Assembly (NCBI GenBank): GCA_036269255.1
Contig: DATASI010000121.1
Span: 7,875-71,874, forward strand
DNA length: 64,000 nt
Direction of reading: 5' to 3'
Source of the DNA: Candidatus Dormiibacterota bacterium
GTDB taxonomy: Bacteria > Chloroflexota > Dormibacteria > CF-121
Positions 42,445 through 52,035 of the stretch are shown one piece after another. A program made the translations under genes and the position numbers. A model generated the notes under the pieces. The model was not told the origin of the DNA. It was given only the letters and a program-made list of their open reading frames with translations, and ran no database searches. Within the stretch, counting starts at the first letter, position 1. Every line of letters starts with the position of its first letter.

Positions 42445-43473
42445 CTGCCCCAGCTTCGACAAGATCTGATCACCGGCCGATGGGTGGCCGTGGCGACCGA
42501 ACGTGCCAGGCGGCCCGACTCATTCACCCAGGCGGCCAAGGAATCCGTCGCGGCCCGCGACGTGTGCCCCTTCTGTCCGGGGCACGAGTCGATGACGCCG
42601 CCGGAGGTTCTGGCGTACCGGCACCCCGGCACCCTGCCCAACACCCAGGGATGGTGGATTCGTGTCGTGCCCAATCTCTATGCCGCCTTCCGGCTCGAGC
42701 CGGATGGGCAGGACCGTCAGGAGGGACCGTTCTGGCAGCGCGACGCGATTGGCGCCTGCGAGGTGCTGATTTCGAGCCCGGACCATCGCGCGCCGACCGC
42801 CGTACTGCCCCGCCGGCAGGTTGAGGAAATCGTGCAATCGTACCTCGACCGCTACCGGCATCACGCGCAGAACCCGGCGCTCGAGCACGTGCTGATCCTT
42901 TACAACCACGGCCGCCCGGCGGGCGCGTCGCTGGAGCACCCGCATTCCCAGCTGTATGCGATCGGGCTGGTGCCGCCGGCCTTCACCGATGAGCTCGCCG
43001 GCGCCCGTCGATGCCTCGATACCTACGGCGGGTGCGGCTTTTGCCGCACCCTGGAGGAGGAGCGGCAGGCCGCGGCGCGAATCGTGTTCGAAAATGAGGC
43101 GTTCGTGGTCTTTGCCCCCTTCGCCGCACGCACGCCGTTCGAAACCTGGGTCATGCCGCGGCGGCATCGGGCCTCGTTCGGCGATCTCGACGAGGCGAGC
43201 GAAAAGCCGGCGTTCGCCGAGGCCCTGCAGCTCACGCTGAGCGCGCTGCGCGAGGGCTTGAACGATCCGCCGTTCAATTACTACATTCACAGCGCGCCGC
43301 TGAAGGCGAAGGTCGACCAGGATTATCACTGGCACCTGGAGCTGATTCCCAAGCTCAGCACCGCCGCGGGCTTCGAGCTGGGGACGGGGATGTGGATCAA
43401 CGTGGTCAAACCCGAAGATTCCGCGGCCTTCCTTCGCGAAGGAATCAAGAAGCGGGTGGGACAACCGGCGTGA
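42445..43473 (+). CDS. Galactose-1-phosphate uridylyltransferase-like HIT-family nucleotidyltransferase (GalT type)
   Basis: The N-terminus reads …[22 protein letters not shown] Zn site CPFCPGHE and the HPHSQ active-site His-Pro-His are present. The first canonical start (GTG 42484) lies inside the conserved N-terminus. CTG 42445 is preceded by AGGAG with a 7-nt spacer. Confidence 0.75.
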
Positions 43474-45995
43474 AGGCGGTGGTGATGGCGGGCGGCGAGG
43501 GGTCGCGGCTGCGGCCGTTGACCAGCGGCATCCCGAAGCCGCTGGTGCCGGTCGTGGGCAAGCCGGTGATGGAGCACATCCTGCGGCTGTTGCGGCAGCA
43601 TGGCATCACCGACGTGATCGTGACGCTGCAGTACCTCGGCTCGGCGATCCGTGACTACTTCGGTGACGGCTCCGATTTCGGGGTGGACATCACCTACGTC
43701 GTCGAGGACTCGCCGCTGGGAACCGCCGGCAGTGTCAAGAACGCGCAGGAGTTCCTCGACGAGCCGTTCATCGTCATCAGCGGCGATGCCCTGACGGACA
43801 TCGACCTCGGCCAGGTGATGGCGTATCACCGGGAGAAAGGCGCGCAGGCCACCATCGTGCTCACCTCGGTCTCGAACCCACTCGAGTTCGGCGTGGTGAT
43901 CACCAACCCGGACGGCACCATCAACCGGTTTTTGGAGAAGCCATCCTGGGGCGAGGTCTTCTCAGACCAGGTGAACACCGGCATCTATGTGATCGAGCCG
44001 GCCGTGCTCGACCTCTTGCCGCCGGCCGCGGTGGTGGACTGGAGCAGCGACGTCTTTCCCAAGATGCTGGCCAACGGGTTGCCGCTGTACGGCTATCTGG
44101 CCGGCGGCTACTGGTGCGACATCGGCAACATTCAGACCTATTACCAGGCGAACTGGGATGCGCTCGAGGGACGGGTCGATCTCGAGATTCCCGGTGAGCG
44201 GCGGCACGGCAATGTCTGGATGGGAGAGAACGTCGAAGTCGGCCTCGGGGTTCGCATCGAAGGCCCCGCCTATATCGGCAACGACTCCAAGCTCAAGGCG
44301 GGCGTCTTCATCAACGGCCCGGTTTGCATCGGCAACTTCTCGGTGGTCGATGAGAACACCAAGGTCAGCAATTCGGTGGTGTGGACCTATTCCTACCTGG
44401 GAGAGAATTCGCGACTGCGGCAGGCGATCGTCTGCCGGCACGCCACCATCAAGAACAACTGCTTGCTGGAAGAAGGTGCCGTCATCGGCGACGACGTGGT
44501 GGTCGGCGAAGGCACCACGATCGACGCCGGCGTCAAGATCTGGCCGGACAAGGAAATCGAGCCGGGATCAACCGTGCACGAGAGCATCATCTGGGCCGGT
44601 CACTACAAGCGGGGGCTGTTCTCTTCCTACGGGCTGGTCGGCCTGGTCAACATCGAGCTGACCCCCGAGTACTGCGCGCGGCTGGGGGCGTCGTTTGCGG
44701 CGCTCTTTCCCAAGGGAGCGGCGATCGGCGCCGCCCGGGATGGCCAGCGGCCGTCGCGGATGATCAAGCGTGCGATGATCGCGGGGATGATGTCGTCCGG
44801 CGCCGAGATCATCGATCTGAGCGAGCTCCCGATTCCGGTGGTGCAGTACTACACCCGCGAGCATCCGATCGCCGGCTCGGTTCATGTGCAGATGTCGCCG
44901 CTCGACAGCCGCTCGGCCGACATCCGGATGTTCGACAGCAACGGTGTCGTGCTGGACAAGCGAGCCGAGCGCAAGCTGGAGAACATCTTCTTCCGCGAGG
45001 ACATCCGGCGGGTTCACTTCTACGAGATGGGTGACATCAGCTACCCGCAAGACACGATCGACTCCTACATTGACGGGCTCGTTGGGCAGATCGATGTCGA
45101 GGCGGTCCGCCAGGCGCATCAGAAAGTGCTGGTCGATTTCGATCACGGCAGTGCCTCACTGGTGCTGCCGCGGCTGTTCAAGGAACTCAACATCGAGGCC
45201 ATCCCGCTCAATGCCGGCTTCGACGAAACCTATCAATCGAAGACGAATGAAGCCTTCGACGAAGCGCGCCGGCAATCGGCGCTGATCACGCGCACGCTCG
45301 GCTGCAATCTGGGCGCCTACATCGACTACGGGTCGGAGCGGATTTTCTTGATCGACGAACAGGGCGAGCTGCTCGACCACCATGAGGCGCTCGGGGTCAT
45401 CGGCTTGCTGGCGCTCAAGAGCAAGCCCGGCGTCCTGGTGGCGCCGGCGACGGTGCCGCAGACGATCGCCGCGCTGGTCCGGCAGCTCCCGGGATCGCAT
45501 TTCGTGCCGGGCAAAGCCGAGCCCGCCGCGTTGCTGCGGGCCGCCCAGCAGCACCAGGCCCGGCTCGCCTCCGATGCGAATGGCGGCTACGCCTTTCCCG
45601 ACCACCTGCTTGGCTTCGACGCCATCTTTAGCTTGATCAAATTGCTCGAGCTGCTGGCGAAGGACGGCCGGCCGGTCTCAGTGGTGCGTCAGGAGATTCC
45701 GCGGGCCGCCTACGAGCACCGGCTCCAGACCGTGCCCTGGGACGCCAAAGGCCGCGTGATGCGCACCATGGTCGAGATGCACCGGGATGCGCCGGTCGAC
45801 CTGGCGGATGGGATCAAGGTGTTCGTCGACGGTGGGTGGGTTCTGGTGCTGCCCGATCCGGATATGCCGCGCTATCACATCATCGTGAGCATGGATGACT
45901 CGCAGCGCGCCCGCGACCTGGCGGACCGGTACACCGCGCTGGTCAAGACGGCTGTTGGTCAAGGCTCGACTGGCCTCCCCCCCGCGCCGAACTGA
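43470..45995 (+). CDS. Bifunctional-architecture protein: an N-terminal sugar-1-phosphate nucleotidyltransferase (GDP-mannose pyrophosphorylase-like, with a left-handed beta-helix) fused to a C-terminal phosphohexomutase-fold domain with apparently degenerate catalytic motifs
   Basis: The N-terminus is [15 protein letters not shown] plus hexapeptide repeats. The C-terminal domain aligns to PMM/PGM, but QMSPLD replaces TASHNP and DYGSER replaces DGDGDR. The GTG start overlaps the GalT stop (GTGA). Confidence 0.75.
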
Positions 45996-46041
45996 TCGGT
46001 TCATTCGAACCGCCCCGTTCTTTCGGGCGCTGCCCGAGAAG

Positions 46042-46452
46042 GTGAAGGCCGGCCTGCCACCGGCGATGAGGGACGTGAAGCATCGCGTGCGGTCGAGCCA
46101 GACGCAGTGGTGGTTCGACGACCCGCGGCTTCATGTCGAGGCCTGGTGGCATGCGAAGACCGGCCGGCTGGAGCTGGGTCTGCACCTGGAGGGCCCACCC
46201 GAGCTCAACGAGCGGATCGCCGTCGGGCTGTCGCGTCGGCTGCTGATGATCAAGGCCCGGCTGGGCGAGCGCCTCGACCTGGAACCATGGGACAAGGGCT
46301 GGGTGCGGTTGTATGAAACGCATGCCGTGGAGGGCTTCGATGCCGCTCGGCTGGCGGCGACGGCCCGGCGCGTCGCCGAGTTGATCGAGGTCCTCTGGCC
46401 GATGTGCGCGGAGTTGCGGCGAGGTAAAATCCGCCTAGCCGAGCGGGTGTAA
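46042..46452 (+). CDS. Hypothetical protein
   Basis: The ORF lies downstream of the fusion gene. Candidate starts are GTG 46042 and ATG 46066. The 3' end overlaps the first 9 nt of tRNA-Gly, which is suspicious. Confidence 0.35.
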   Translation: MKAGLPPAMRDVKHRVRSSQTQWWFDDPRLHVEAWWHAKTGRLELGLHLEGPPELNERIAVGLSRRLLMIKARLGERLDLEPWDKGWVRLYETHAVEGFDAARLAATARRVAELIEVLWPMCAELRRGKIRLAERV

Positions 46453-47384: not shown

Positions 47385-49607
47385 GTGGAAGCACCCCCCA
47401 AGTCCCCGGTGTCCGCGCCTGTCCGCGACGCCGACATAGCACCGTCAGGCCAGCCAGAGCCCAGTTCGACACCCTCCGTCCAGGAGTCTCAGGCCGGCCA
47501 GGCGCCGACCCTCGTCGACGGTCACCCGGCGAGCTCCGGCGCCCGCCAACGCTACATCAACCGGGAGCTCTCCCAGCTCGACTTCGACGAGCGAGTGCTC
47601 GCCATGGCGGAAGATCGATCGCGCCCGCTTCTGGAGCGGGTCCGGTTCCTCGCCATCCTGGGCGAGAACGTCGACCAGTTCTTCCAGGTGCGGGTCGCCG
47701 GACTCAAGGAACAGTTGCACGCGGCGCTGCCGCAGACGTCCCCGGACGGTATGACCACCGGCGAGCAACTTCGCGCCATCCATGAGCGCGCTGACGGCCT
47801 GCTGAAGGTGAGTACCCGTCTCTTCACCGAAGACGTGGCGCCCGCCCTCGACCGGCACGGCGTGTGCGTCGCCGGCGTCGGCAACCTCGATGACGCTGAC
47901 CGCGATTACCTGGCCGCGGAATTCGAGGCGCGCATCTTCCCGGTGTTGACTCCTCTCGCCGTCGATCCGGCGCACCCATTCCCCTACATCTCCCATCTGT
48001 CGCTGAACCTCGCCGTCATGGTTCGAGACCCCGTCAACCGGGAGATGCGGTTCGCGCGCGTCAAGGTTCCGCCGCTGCTCCCGCGCTTCATTCCGCTGCC
48101 GGATGGTAAGCGGTTCATTCCGCTCGAGCAGGTGATCTCCCTCCACGTCGACGAGCTCTTTCCCGGGATGGACATCGTCAGTCAGCATCCCTTCCGGGTG
48201 ACCCGCGACGCCGACCTCGACGTGGTCGACGAGGAGGCCGCCGACCTTTTGGCGGCGATTCAGAGCGAGCTCCGCCGGCAGCAGCGCCGCGCGCAGGTGG
48301 TCCGACTCGAGGTCGACGCCGGGATGTCGGAAGAGGTGCTCGACCTGCTGGTTCGCGAGCTCGAGCTGGAGCCGACCGACGTCTACCGGGTCGAAGGACT
48401 GCTCGACCTCAGCAGCCTGTGGGCGCTCTATGCGCTGGATCGGCCAGATCTCAAGGATGACCCCTGGACCCCGGTGACGCAGCTGCGGCTGAAAGGCCCG
48501 GGTGGTGCACCGGCGGACATCTTCAAGGTTCTCGAGGACGGCGACGTGCTCGTGCACCATCCCTATGACTCCTTTGCCAGCTCGGCGGAGGCCTTCATCG
48601 AGCAGGCCGCGCAGGACCCGGACGTCCTCGCCATCAAGCAGACGCTCTACCGAACCTCGGGTCCGGTCAGCCCGATCGTGCGCTCCCTGATCGGCGCGGC
48701 CGAGAGCGGCAAGCAGGTCGTTGCCTTGGTCGAACTCAAGGCCCGCGGCGACGAGCGCGCGAATATCGCCTGGGCCCAGGCGCTGGAGCAGGTCGGCGTC
48801 CACGTCGTCTACGGCGTCGTGGGATTGAAGACGCACGCCAAGGTGGCGCTGGTGGTCCGGCGGGAAGCCGAGGGCATTCGTCGCTACGTGCACGTCGGGA
48901 CCGGCAACTACAACCCGAAGACCGCCCAGATCTACGAGGACGTGGGACTTCTCTCGGCTGATCCCGAGCTCGGCAACGACGTGGCCGAACTCTTCAATTT
49001 CCTGACCGGGTACAGCCGTCAGCGGCGGTTCGGCCGGCTGCTGGTCGCGCCGATGGGGCTGCGGGCCAACATCATCCGCATGATTCGCCTGGAGGCCGGC
49101 CGGCCGGGGGGCGGCCGGATCGTGCTCAAGGTCAACGCCCTGGTCGATCCGGAGATCGTCGACGTCCTCTACGAGGCCTCGCAGGCGGGAACCCAGATCG
49201 ATCTCATCGTGCGTGGCATCTGCAGTCTGCGGCCCGGCGTCCCTGGGCTCTCCGAAAATATTCGGGTTCGGTCACTGGTCGGCCGCTTCCTCGAACACTC
49301 GCGCGTCTTCCGCTTTGGCCCGGATGGCGATGAAGCCGCCTACTATCTCGGGTCGTCAGACCTGATGCCTCGCAACCTCGACCGCCGCGTCGAGGCGATG
49401 GTTCCCGTGCTGGATCGCCGGCTGCAGCAGCGTCTCGATCAGGTGATCGAGGTGGAACTCAAGGATGACGTGCTCGCCTGGACTCTCCATGCAGATGGGT
49501 CCTGGACCAAAGTCGAAACCGTCGAGGGCGTCAATGCCCAGCGGGTTTTCGAAAAGCTCGCCACCGAGCGGGCCGTCAGCTCGACGAACGGGTCCCTGGA
49601 TGCTTGA
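47385..49607 (+). CDS. ppk: Polyphosphate kinase 1
   Basis: PPK1 N-terminal, head and two PLD-like C-terminal domains (…RYINRELSQLDFDERVL…, …HAKVALVVRRE…, …HSRVFRF…). There is a low-complexity roughly 50-aa N-terminal extension. Confidence 0.9.
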   Translation: MEAPPKSPVSAPVRDADIAPSGQPEPSSTPSVQESQAGQAPTLVDGHPASSGARQRYINRELSQLDFDERVLAMAEDRSRPLLERVRFLAILGENVDQFFQVRVAGLKEQLHAALPQTSPDGMTTGEQLRAIHERADGLLKVSTRLFTEDVAPALDRHGVCVAGVGNLDDADRDYLAAEFEARIFPVLTPLAVDPAHPFPYISHLSLNLAVMVRDPVNREMRFARVKVPPLLPRFIPLPDGKRFIPLEQVISLHVDELFPGMDIVSQHPFRVTRDADLDVVDEEAADLLAAIQSELRRQQRRAQVVRLEVDAGMSEEVLDLLVRELELEPTDVYRVEGLLDLSSLWALYALDRPDLKDDPWTPVTQLRLKGPGGAPADIFKVLEDGDVLVHHPYDSFASSAEAFIEQAAQDPDVLAIKQTLYRTSGPVSPIVRSLIGAAESGKQVVALVELKARGDERANIAWAQALEQVGVHVVYGVVGLKTHAKVALVVRREAEGIRRYVHVGTGNYNPKTAQIYEDVGLLSADPELGNDVAELFNFLTGYSRQRRFGRLLVAPMGLRANIIRMIRLEAGRPGGGRIVLKVNALVDPEIVDVLYEASQAGTQIDLIVRGICSLRPGVPGLSENIRVRSLVGRFLEHSRVFRFGPDGDEAAYYLGSSDLMPRNLDRRVEAMVPVLDRRLQQRLDQVIEVELKDDVLAWTLHADGSWTKVETVEGVNAQRVFEKLATERAVSSTNGSLDA

Positions 49608-51078
49608 ACGCGAGGTCAAACTCGCGGTCCCGCCTTCCTTCAGCCTTCCCGACCTCGGCGACCTCGGCGCGGCCATCCATACCTCGCCCGTTGACGAACG
49701 GCGATTGGAGACCGTCTACTACGACTCGCCCGATCTGCGCCTGACCCGCTGGGGATGCAGCCTGCGGTTGCGCCAGGGTGAAGGCTGGACGCTCAAGCTT
49801 CCCGTCTCCGGCGACCATGTCGCGCTGACCCGCCGCGAGCTCGAGTTCCCAAACCGCGAAAGCCGTCCGCCCGACGCCGCCGTTGCCCTGGTTCTGGGCT
49901 ACGTGCGTAAAAGCACCCTGGTGCCGGTGGTCAGCCTTTCAACCTTGCGGCGCAAGCTCCAGCTTTTAACCGGCGACGGGACGGTCCTTGCCGAGGTGGT
50001 CGACGACGATGTTTCGGTGATCCAGGGGCTTCGCGTCCAGAATCGCTTTCGCGAAATCGAGGTTGAGCTGCGCGACCCCTCCGCCGAAGCGCTGCTGCAA
50101 CCGATCCTTTCGCGCCTGCGTGGGGCCGGGGCTGCCGATGAAGGACAGACCTCAAAGCTCATTCGCGCGCTGGGCGCCCGGGCAACCGCCCCGCCCGAAG
50201 TCGACCCCTTGCCGATCGGCTCCGCCCCCACCACCGCCGAGCTGGTTCGCCACGTGATCGGATCGTCGGTCTCGAGCCTGCTCCAGCACGACCCGGGAGT
50301 GCGTCTCGGTGACGACCCCGAAGACGTCCATCGGGCTCGCGTCGCAACGCGGCGACTGCGGTCGCAGCTGCGCACCTTCCGGACCGTGCTCGAGCCGGAC
50401 TGGACGGCGACCATCCGGGAGGACCTTCGCTGGTTGGGCGGCGGGCTGGGGACGGTGCGCGACAAACAGGTCTTAAGCCAGCGGCTCCGCGGGCGTGCCG
50501 CGGCCCTCGACAAGGCCGACGCCCCGGCGGTCGCGGAGCTCGCCGACGAGCTCGAGGCGGAAAGCCAGGAGGCAAGGGGACGCCTGGTGCTCGACATGCG
50601 TTCAGAGCGTTACCTCGAGATCATCGAGCGCCTGATCGAGGCGTCACGCTCTCCCCGCGTCACCGATGCCGGCCAGCAACCCGCATCATCGCTGATGTCC
50701 TCCCTTGTCCGGCGGGACTGGAAGCGCTTGCGCAAGGGGGTCTCGAAGCTGCCGGAGGTCCCATCCGACGCGGAGCTGCACCGCATTCGCATCATGGCAA
50801 AACGCCTGCGCTACGCGGCGGAGGCCGCTGAGCCGATCGCCGGCAAGGATGCGACACGGCAGGCTGAGGCGGCCACCCAACTGCAGGACGTGCTCGGTGA
50901 TCACCAGGACAGTGTCACTGCGCAACGGTGGCTGCGTCAGGCGACGCAGGGCCCGCAGGCCTTCGCGGCCGGCGAGCTGACCGCCATGGAACGGGCGGCG
51001 GCGCTGGAGGATCGGGTCGAATGGCATCGCGCCTGGAAAAAACTTTCCCGCAGACGACTCAGAAAGTGGATGATATAA
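49600..51078 (+). CDS. CYTH-domain (triphosphate tunnel metalloenzyme) plus CHAD-domain protein
   Basis: The ATG at 49600 overlaps the ppk stop by 8 nt. It opens with MLEREVKL (ExExK CYTH signature). The C-terminal helical CHAD region carries conserved His/Arg (…VHRARVATRRLRS…HRIRIMAKRLRYAAE…). Confidence 0.8.
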   Translation: MLEREVKLAVPPSFSLPDLGDLGAAIHTSPVDERRLETVYYDSPDLRLTRWGCSLRLRQGEGWTLKLPVSGDHVALTRRELEFPNRESRPPDAAVALVLGYVRKSTLVPVVSLSTLRRKLQLLTGDGTVLAEVVDDDVSVIQGLRVQNRFREIEVELRDPSAEALLQPILSRLRGAGAADEGQTSKLIRALGARATAPPEVDPLPIGSAPTTAELVRHVIGSSVSSLLQHDPGVRLGDDPEDVHRARVATRRLRSQLRTFRTVLEPDWTATIREDLRWLGGGLGTVRDKQVLSQRLRGRAAALDKADAPAVAELADELEAESQEARGRLVLDMRSERYLEIIERLIEASRSPRVTDAGQQPASSLMSSLVRRDWKRLRKGVSKLPEVPSDAELHRIRIMAKRLRYAAEAAEPIAGKDATRQAEAATQLQDVLGDHQDSVTAQRWLRQATQGPQAFAAGELTAMERAAALEDRVEWHRAWKKLSRRRLRKWMI

Positions 51079-51134
51079 GGGAGGCCGCGTCGATCAAGCA
51101 ATCGTGGCAGCAACAAACCGCGCAAGGGGTGTCC

Positions 51135-51569
51135 ATGGCAGCAAAGATCCTGAATGTCGATGAGGCCAAGCTGGTTCGCGCCGCAGGTGGCGTGGTTCGT
51201 AAGAACGGATCACGCGGGCCGATCAGGCTGGCGATCGTACACCGGCCGGGGTATGACGATTGGTCGTTTCCCAAAGGTAAGCTCGATCGTGGTGAGACCC
51301 TCGAGGAGGCCGCGCTCCGAGAGGTAGAGGAGGAGACGGGTCTGCGCTGCCGCCTGGTCAGCGCCCTCGGTTGCACCGCCTACTCCGACCACAAGGGCCG
51401 TGACAAGGTGGCCTGCTACTACTTGATGGATGTCGTCGGCGGGCGATTCCAGGCAGGCAGTGAGGTCGATGAAGTCCGTTGGGTGACGGTGGACGAGGCG
51501 ATGGATCTGCTCAGCTACCGCCGCGACCGCGCGCTGCTTCGCGCCTTCGACCTCGCCGAAACGGGCTAA
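51135..51569 (+). CDS. NUDIX hydrolase
   Basis: Nudix box GKLDRGETLEEAALREVEEETG. The start is the internal ATG 51135 with an AAGGGG Shine-Dalgarno. The ORF-track upstream extension overlaps the CHAD gene. Confidence 0.8.
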   Translation: MAAKILNVDEAKLVRAAGGVVRKNGSRGPIRLAIVHRPGYDDWSFPKGKLDRGETLEEAALREVEEETGLRCRLVSALGCTAYSDHKGRDKVACYYLMDVVGGRFQAGSEVDEVRWVTVDEAMDLLSYRRDRALLRAFDLAETG

Positions 51570-51576
51570 CCGCTTC

Positions 51577-52035
51577 TTGCCGGTCTACGTCGTCCGGCAT
51601 GCCAAAGCCGGTGACCGTTCGGAATGGCAAGGGGATGACCGGCTCAGGCCCTTGACCAAGGCGGGCAGCAAGCAGGCGGAAGCGCTGGCGCAACAGCTGC
51701 GGGACGAACCTCTGGACGAAATCCGCTCGAGCGCCTATGTGCGCTGCATGCAAACGGTTGAGCCCCTGGCGAAGGCGCGAGGGTTGCCGGTCCAACCGGA
51801 ACCACTCCTCGAAGAAGGAGCCGGCGGGGAGAGCGTGCTGCGGCTCATCAAGCAGCGGCCGGGCCGCCGGCTCGTCCTCTGCACCCACGGCGACGTCGTC
51901 GAGGAGCTGCTCGAGCTGCTGGTCGAGCGAGGCCTGCTGTCCCGATCACGGCTTGCCAATGAGAAGGGTGGCACCTGGGTCCTCGAGGAACGCAACGGCG
52001 ATGTCTCCGGCGCCAGCTATCGGGCCGCGCCCTGA
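51577..52035 (+). CDS. Histidine-phosphatase-superfamily protein (SixA/phosphoglycerate-mutase-like)
   Basis: RHAKA catalytic RHG-type motif at the N-terminus and a C-terminal …LCTHGDVV… motif. The start codon is TTG. Confidence 0.75.
   Translation: MPVYVVRHAKAGDRSEWQGDDRLRPLTKAGSKQAEALAQQLRDEPLDEIRSSAYVRCMQTVEPLAKARGLPVQPEPLLEEGAGGESVLRLIKQRPGRRLVLCTHGDVVEELLELLVERGLLSRSRLANEKGGTWVLEERNGDVSGASYRAAP

Follow-up and report, generated by a model that had tools for sequence, protein, structure and literature searches.

The 841-residue protein encoded at positions 43470..45995 (plus strand, GTG start, TGA stop) of a 64,000-nucleotide stretch of Candidatus Dormiibacterota DNA (contig DATASI010000121.1, positions 7,875 to 71,874; this whole stretch is hereafter called the window) is a fusion of a sugar-1-phosphate nucleotidyltransferase, a left-handed beta-helix (LbH) and a module related to phosphomannomutases/phosphoglucomutases (PMM/PGM), and is probably a nucleoside diphosphate (NDP)-hexose pyrophosphorylase that carries a non-catalytic pseudo-mutase module. 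The C-terminal half is predicted from its residues to be unable to act as a phosphosugar mutase. An initial annotation of the window had proposed such a pseudo-enzyme fused to an intact pyrophosphorylase, and the proposal holds, since the four mutase loops are degenerate and the transferase residues are kept.

The fusion protein fails all four canonical PMM/PGM loop patterns, [TS][AG]SH[NL]P, DxDxDR, GE(x)(S/N)G(G/H) and RxS(G/N)TEP. The phosphoserine loop, canonically TASHNP, reads QMSPLD (Gln474-Met-Ser476-Pro-Leu-Asp479, 44889..44906), with the serine kept and the following His, Asn and Pro replaced by Pro, Leu and Asp; the metal loop, canonically DGDxDR (D-G-D-A-D-R), reads DYGSER (Asp619 to Arg624, 45324..45341), with Gly in place of the second Asp and Glu in place of the third; the sugar-binding loop, canonically GEENGG or GEESGG, reads SDANGG (Ser701 to Gly706, 45570..45587) and has lost the Glu; and the phosphate-binding loop, canonically RxSGTEP (R-A-S-G-T-E-P), reads LPDPDMP (Leu794 to Pro800, 45849..45869), in which Arg, Ser and Thr have become Leu, Asp and Asp (all on the plus strand). 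The initial annotation had read the first two loops as degenerate, which stands, but three residues are in fact retained, the nucleophile Ser476 and, in the metal loop, the first Asp and Arg; it had described the sugar- and phosphate-binding loops as not recognisable, and these are indeed degenerate, yet can be located by alignment. Two further mutase positions are altered, as the N-terminal GVRG of mutases is GLVG in the fusion protein (Arg to Val) and the Lys of NGIK is an Arg (ADIR).

The loop columns are identical, residue for residue, across three phmmer alignments to solved PMM/PGMs, and they come out the same when MAFFT L-INS-i is applied independently to a set that includes three canonical PGMs (that of P. 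horikoshii and the stand-alone PGMs found next to the fusion at two loci, L019 and L034). A comparison of folds likewise places the loops at their canonical sites. A six-frame regular-expression search of the whole window gave no [ST][AGP]SH[NL]P and no RxS[GN]TEP, and inside the fusion gene it gave no DxDxDR or GExxG[GH]. The initial annotation had named an intact serine loop or DxDxDR site elsewhere in the C-terminal domain as the observation that would speak against it; none was found by phmmer, MAFFT or regular expression, and a displacement of the mutase motifs to another part of the domain was rejected, there being none in the gene by the six-frame search.

The fold of the module is fully preserved. 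The C-terminal 461 residues align end to end with the archaeal PMM/PGMs 1wqa (E 3e-61), 9du5 and 2f7l (phmmer), and the module is 26-28% identical to solved archaeal-type PMM/PGMs. Pfam identifies domain I (residues 383-511, 44616..45002; PF02878, PGM_PMM_I, E 8e-22; also aligned to 1wqa) and domain II (residues 531-632, 45060..45365; PF02879, PGM_PMM_II, E 1e-12), finds domain III (approximately residues 636-745, 45375..45704) below threshold with PF02880 (E 0.002), and gives no match to PF00408 (PGM_PMM_IV) in the fusion protein; domain III is recognised by its fold match, and the fold is likewise kept in domain IV (approximately residues 746-830, 45705..45959). No NCBIfam model scores above its cut-off for the fusion protein, the best one for the C-terminal half being that of archaeal GlmM (TIGR03990, Arch_GlmM; 224 bits against a cut-off of 439). 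AlphaFold2, run with 52 homologues, gives a model with a mean predicted local distance difference test score (pLDDT) of 80 and a predicted template modelling score of 0.56 for the full protein; the pLDDT is about 85-95 in the transferase and PGM-like domains, 55-70 in the beta-helix and below 50 in the linker (residues 371-396, 44580..44657) that joins the beta-helix to the PGM-like module. The PGM-like half of the model superposes on the whole chains of 9du5 and 1wqa with target-normalised template modelling (TM) scores of 0.88-0.89 over about 456 columns (E about 1e-41, Foldseek against the PDB). The match extends over the whole chain, and therefore all four mutase domains are present, including domains III and IV that are missed by Pfam, so that the C-terminal half is a complete four-domain alpha-D-phosphohexomutase fold. 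The four-domain PMM/PGM layout proposed in the initial annotation is borne out by both the end-to-end alignment and the TM scores.

Full-length collinear homologues show the fusion architecture to be present in Dormibacterota, Chloroflexota, Actinomycetota, Bacillota, Eremiobacterota and Armatimonadota. The closest genomic relatives of the window gene come from metagenome-assembled genomes of Candidatus Dormibacter/Dormibacterota, many Streptomyces members are approximately 40% identical to the fusion protein over residues 1-828, and a single scan gave at least 600 genomic matches. The close set comprised 120 full-length homologues at 55-93% identity; the distant set comprised 142 full-length fusions, at 32-52% identity, among the best 150 cluster representatives (50% clustering level) from a search of 1.84 billion cluster representatives; and genomic context was taken from 80 loci (L001-L080) plus the 90%-identical relatives L081 and L082. 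Across 116 homologues with at least 55% identity, Ser476, Pro477, Asp479, Glu623, Arg624, Asp702, Pro795, Asp796, Asp798 and Pro800 are invariant or nearly so, and the strings S-P-L-D and P-D-x-D-x-P are present in all 116; the 'degenerate' loops are themselves conserved in close homologues.

Among the 142 distant representatives the canonical mutase residues are largely lost: the phosphoserine-loop His is present in none and the Ser in 54 (38%); the metal loop retains its first, second and third Asp in 76, 23 and 14, and Glu stands at the third position in 105; nine keep the phosphate-loop Arg, 110 have Asp at the Ser position of that loop and 82 have Glu or Asp at its Thr position; and about 60 show a deletion of the sugar loop. 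Intact loops persist in a few deep members, the metal loop in P0135 and P0154 and the sugar loop in P0179, and none of these has a Ser-His-Asn loop either. Streptomyces members carry matching degenerate loops (IRTSPGVPDS, FDPVGER and LPDPAEA); loci L025, L039 and L042 were left out of this loop comparison. In 42 diverse members, Pfam recognises PGM_PMM_I in 42, PGM_PMM_II in 39, PGM_PMM_III in 25 and PGM_PMM_IV (PF00408) in none.

The module is nevertheless maintained. The ratio of nonsynonymous to synonymous substitution rates (dN/dS, Nei-Gojobori) against the 84%-identical L001 homologue is 0.107 for the PGM-like part and 0.116 for the transferase, and against L002 it is 0.238 and 0.124, respectively; the dead mutase domain is under purifying selection and is not decaying. 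A kept fold, lost catalytic residues and purifying selection together place the module within the operational definition of a pseudoenzyme. Where at least 75% of the 142 representatives agree, the residue is mostly an ancestral structural one that the P. horikoshii enzyme also has, but domain IV has two family-specific elements that canonical PGMs do not have: an 11-residue motif at residues 755-765 (45732..45764, plus strand; consensus CPW[ED]xKGxVMR) and Pro795/Asp796 of the LPDxxEP loop. The C, K, G and R of the motif are conserved in 118, 114, 133 and 130 of the 142, and Pro795 and Asp796 in 135 and 110. Conservation is lowest in domains II and III (mean identity to the fusion protein 21-22%). 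In domain IV, basic and acidic residues were seen to stand in for the chemistry of the phosphate-binding loop.

The N-terminal half, in turn, appears to be an intact and working NDP-hexose pyrophosphorylase, acting on a nucleoside triphosphate (NTP) and a hexose-1-phosphate. The nucleotidyltransferase domain (residues 2-231, 43473..44162) matches PF00483 (NTP_transferase) with an E-value of 1e-54 and 186 bits, against a cut-off of 21.2, and contains the 13-residue transferase signature (43485..43523) and FLEKPS (43929..43946); it is followed by the left-handed beta-helix (hexapeptide) domain (residues 247-357, 44208..44540), matched by LbH_EIF2B (1e-17; 64.5 bits, cut-off 54) and Hexapep (2e-12; 46.9 bits, cut-off 27), all on the plus strand. 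The transferase residues Gly8, Gly9, Gly11, Arg13, Lys23, Gly84, Asp106, Glu156, Lys157, Pro158 and Asp217 are kept in 134-142 of the 142 representatives, which, with the Pfam scores above cut-off, confirms the canonical nucleotidyltransferase and hexapeptide beta-helix described initially.

The product of this half may be either GDP-mannose or UDP-glucose, as judged from similarity. The initial annotation had placed it nearest to GDP-mannose pyrophosphorylase (GMP), and the best NCBIfam model is indeed that of the Rv3264c-type mannose-1-phosphate (Man-1-P) guanylyltransferase (NF052502), although at 290.9 bits it is below the cut-off of 440; however, among solved structures 8x7s (tlr0611), an entry deposited as a UTP-glucose-1-phosphate uridylyltransferase, comes first (E 6e-75), and the GDP-mannose enzymes score behind it, between 3e-53 and 6e-42 (3e-53 for Leishmania GDP-MP and about 1e-42 for VTC1 and GMPPB). 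Foldseek likewise ranks 8x7s first for the N-terminal half, followed by GDP-mannose pyrophosphorylases. We take tlr0611 to be of the CugP type; a literature search returned nothing on tlr0611. The GDP-mannose label of the fusion family is, on these similarities, not secure.

We hypothesize that the N-terminal half makes NDP-hexose from NTP and hexose-1-phosphate, and that the pseudo-mutase module would be kept for a non-catalytic job, which may be the assembly of oligomers or that of a ligand- or partner-binding regulatory or docking module, with a conserved functional surface that would be centred on domain IV (CPW[ED]xKGxVMR and LPDxxEP), and with true mutase activity presumably supplied by a separate gene. 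Several points weigh against this proposal: the loss of activity is a sequence-based prediction for every member of the family; Ser476, Asp619, Glu623 and Arg624 are invariant or nearly so in the clade of the window, in which residual or altered phosphoryl chemistry may persist; we infer the regulatory or scaffold role of the module; and fused relatives with an intact mutase could exist beyond the best 150 representatives and the 120 close homologues. A more specific version, which we put forward tentatively and hold to be possible but doubtful, is that the dead mutase is a built-in sensor or docking module, the cis counterpart of GMPPA, that ties nucleotide-sugar synthesis to a metabolite or to a lipid/envelope partner enzyme across Terrabacteria phyla. 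Here, the acidic loop that replaces the phosphate-binding loop and the new Lys/Arg motif of domain IV would form a new binding site, and the recurrence of CDP-alcohol phosphatidyltransferase (cardiolipin synthase), Lgt, PAP2 and glycosyltransferase family 4 (GT4) genes near the fusion would be explained.

The conservation of domain IV could also be read as the mark of a PGM-fold module rebuilt into a different enzyme, with a new site at Lys760, Arg765, Asp796 and Asp/Glu798. The persistence of CPW[ED]xKGxVMR and LPDxxEP across phyla and the strong purifying selection on the module are in its favour, but we consider it unlikely, given that the conserved set is small and would also suit a surface for binding or for contact between domains, that domains II and III are the least conserved, with the sugar loop often deleted, and that the module showed no catalytic signature of a known kind. 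LPDPD was considered as a HAD-like DxD nucleophile and rejected, as most relatives have DxE and the fold is a different one. Very unlikely, in our view, is a truly bifunctional Man-1-P guanylyltransferase/phosphomannomutase with a non-canonical site formed by Ser476, Asp619, Glu623 and Arg624. It is true that Ser476 stands at the nucleophile position and is invariant in the 116 close homologues, that Asp619, Glu623 and Arg624 could still hold a metal, and that the name is used by source annotations and, from the domains, for what SCO1388 of Streptomyces coelicolor 'appears' to be (PMC5982138). Nevertheless, the His, the Asn, the second metal Asp, the sugar-loop Glu and the phosphate-loop Arg, Ser and Thr are all lost (Ser and Thr to acidic residues), the GVRG Arg and the NGIK Lys are changed too, the serine is kept in just 54 and the sugar loop deleted in about 60 of the 142 representatives, and sco1388 does not compensate for the loss of manB in S. 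coelicolor.

At the other extreme, both halves could be non-catalytic, as in eIF2B gamma and epsilon, which share the nucleotidyltransferase and LbH layout, and the whole protein would serve in regulation or as a scaffold. In favour of this, the eIF2B-epsilon LbH model gives the best match to the LbH region and the sco1388 knockout has no GDP-mannose-related phenotype; however, GxGxR...K, GD, EKP and Asp217 are kept in 134-142 of the 142 representatives, which is the pattern of an active transferase, and another nucleotide-sugar product would account for the Streptomyces result just as well, so we regard this as highly improbable. It is scarcely credible that the C-terminal half is a functionless, decaying relic. 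Its four catalytic loops are degenerate and the Pfam models of domains III and IV fail or nearly fail, but its dN/dS of about 0.1 (against L001) equals that of the transferase domain, the gene (43470..45995) has no internal stops or frameshifts, members as far apart as those of Streptomyces and Bacillota (32-52% identity) preserve the full-length architecture, and the AlphaFold2 model of the module is confident.

The pyrophosphorylase with a pseudo-mutase module bears on annotation. The fusion family, which counts several hundred members or more, is labelled in databases 'mannose-1-phosphate guanylyltransferase / phosphomannomutase', which we take to be KEGG K16881, and is thus publicly named as a bifunctional ManC/ManB, a job that the mutase half should be unable to do, judging by its sequence. 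Because the mutase half is degenerate by sequence, metabolic reconstructions that credit a phosphomannomutase from the fusion gene are probably wrong, and these include reconstructions of poorly known phyla such as Dormibacterota. The window gene is an ordinary member of a known and widely annotated family; what appears to be new is the family-wide reading of a pseudo-mutase and the resulting annotation error. The family would provide a bacterial case of an enzyme joined to an inactive version of the one that acts before it in the pathway, and this reading gives a rationale for the lack of a phenotype of sco1388 in Streptomyces.

The fusion gene lies in an open frame of 43392..45995 (plus strand), with an internal GTG at 43470 in the list of open reading frames (ORFs), and this GTG overlaps the TGA of the upstream gene (42484..43473) within GTGA. 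Homologues of 828-841 residues share an identical 11-residue N-terminus with the fusion protein, and because they begin with the same 11 residues, 43470 is likely to be the true start. A 185-residue ORF without a Pfam match (45895..46452) shares about 100 nucleotides with the 3' end of the fusion gene, and in L081 and L082 a gene of 123-161 residues is called at the corresponding place.

The upstream gene (42484..43473, plus strand) encodes a GalT-like class I HIT protein (PF01087 and PF02744, GalP_UDP_transf N and C) with CPFC at residue 28 and HPH at residue 152. The overlap of its stop with the start of the fusion had been noted in the initial annotation and is confirmed, with the addition that this protein scores below the NCBIfam galT cut-offs and that among solved structures it lies nearest to Arabidopsis At5g18200 (1z84, 2e-54), well ahead of E. 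coli GalT (1e-13). We take At5g18200 to be an ADP-glucose phosphorylase. The GalT-like gene adjoins the fusion in one of the 80 loci (L002; tblastn) and is not found next to it in the 84%-identical L001 or in the other 78; the order MFS, amidohydrolase, GalT-like and fusion is kept in L081 and L082. With its adjacency limited to L002, L081 and L082, the GalT-like neighbour was rejected as a functional clue for the whole family. A polyphosphate-related block lies downstream in the window (47385..52035), with PPK1 (47385..49607), CYTH/CHAD (49465..51078), a NUDIX hydrolase and a His_Phos_1 (SixA-like) phosphatase, and its order is the same in L081 and L082.

A single conserved operon partner of the fusion was also rejected, as partners vary by phylum. 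A CDP-alcohol phosphatidyltransferase gene is found directly upstream in 44 of the 80 loci, almost all from Actinomycetota; it lies about 100-600 bp from the fusion on the same strand, in loci ranging over L022-L080 and from Acidimicrobiia and Gaiellales to Streptomyces. S. coelicolor Sco1389 is a cardiolipin synthase dependent on CDP-diacylglycerol (PMC4966929) and appears, by its gene number, to be this actinobacterial upstream gene. Downstream of the fusion, Actinomycetota have genes that resemble a DUF881 / FHA-domain / MerR block, as judged by eye from the ORF sequences. About 17 Streptomyces contigs (L053, L055, L059-L062, L064, L065, L067, L068, L071-L074, L076, L077 and L079) break 830-1140 bp upstream of the fusion, just past the CDP-alcohol transferase gene, and this recurrent assembly break suggests, perhaps, a repeat there.

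In Chloroflexota, Lgt is found downstream of the fusion in four loci (L008, L018, L026 and L030), a small PI3_PI4_kinase-like gene upstream in L016 and L017, and PAP2 downstream in L012. L030 also has, about 2.7 kb downstream of the fusion, an 833-residue ORF without a Pfam match (L030:13216-15714), which is similar in length and evidently unrelated. GT4 genes are present upstream in some Dormibacterota and Bacillota (L005:6641-7942, L007 and L011; L025, L028:6617-7903 and L046:6624-7895), the Bacillota type being nearest to, and below the cut-offs of, the GlgM/'glgA_Coryne', MshA and BshA models. These could not be treated as one ORF cluster, since two GT4 types are involved and in some loci they are several kb away. 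Altogether, the neighbours hint, circumstantially, at a membrane-lipid or envelope theme. At L019:10532-11944 and L034:10649-12133, a stand-alone PGM that carries TASHNP, DGDxDR, GEESxG and RPSGTEP lies directly downstream of the fusion, and by these motifs the real mutase would be supplied next door at both loci.

Among known systems, SCO1388 of S. coelicolor has the same full-length architecture as the window protein (nucleotidyltransferase, LbH and PGM-like module) and by its domains 'appears' to be a bifunctional GMP/ManB enzyme (PMC5982138). Its disruption, alone or together with that of other manC candidates, gave no phenotype, and the authors state that it 'contributes little to GMP activity'; the knockout of the stand-alone manB (sco3028) was severe, and a sco3039 sco4238 double mutant was unobtainable, in both cases with sco1388 intact (PMC5982138). 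These genetics fit a dead mutase in SCO1388, and suggest that any GDP-mannose made by the transferase half may be too little to be of use. SCO1388 was studied by genetics only; its paper was the sole relevant one found in our literature search, in which no description of a pseudo-mutase of this fusion type, nor a statement of this nature for SCO1388, was found. The two genes differ in their surroundings, with a CDP-alcohol phosphatidyltransferase upstream in SCO1388-type Actinomycetota and a GalT-like gene upstream in the window.

The archaeal-type PMM/PGMs (P. horikoshii 1wqa, T. kodakarensis 9du5 and S. tokodaii 2f7l) have the same four-domain fold and share Phe384, Gly391, Asn394, Asp424, Gly444, Tyr533 and Asp717 with the fusion protein, whereas the window module has degenerate loops and its own domain IV motifs, and is fused to a transferase. 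The PDB entries 1wqa and 9du5 list four chains each, which by analogy would be compatible with a role of the pseudo-mutase in oligomerisation. On the transferase side, tlr0611, Leishmania GDP-MP, Arabidopsis VTC1 and human GMPPB align over their full length with residues 1-365 of the fusion protein and have intact catalytic motifs, but none of them has a PGM-like extension.

Dead relatives of pathway enzymes are known elsewhere. GMPPA is non-catalytic, binds GDP-mannose and regulates GMPPB (PMC11228364; PDB 7d72-7d74), and as a dead relative of a sugar-nucleotide pathway enzyme it resembles the window module; however, GMPPA is a dead copy of the pyrophosphorylase that acts in trans, whereas the window module is a dead copy of the preceding enzyme, the mutase, fused in cis, and a regulatory role of the window module is putative. 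PGM5/aciculin and parafusin are members of the mutase superfamily without mutase activity and with non-metabolic roles (PMC7761743, PMC2140215). They are eukaryotic (animals, ciliates) and stand-alone, unlike the window fusion, and herring PGM5 is reported to be inactive with intact substrate binding, whereas the window module has lost the substrate-binding loops as well. Finally, in the GlmM-CdaA complex (PDB 7olh, 7ojs and 9g69) a PGM-fold protein acts on another nucleotidyl-transfer enzyme by protein contact, although GlmM is there an active and unfused mutase, unlike the module described here.

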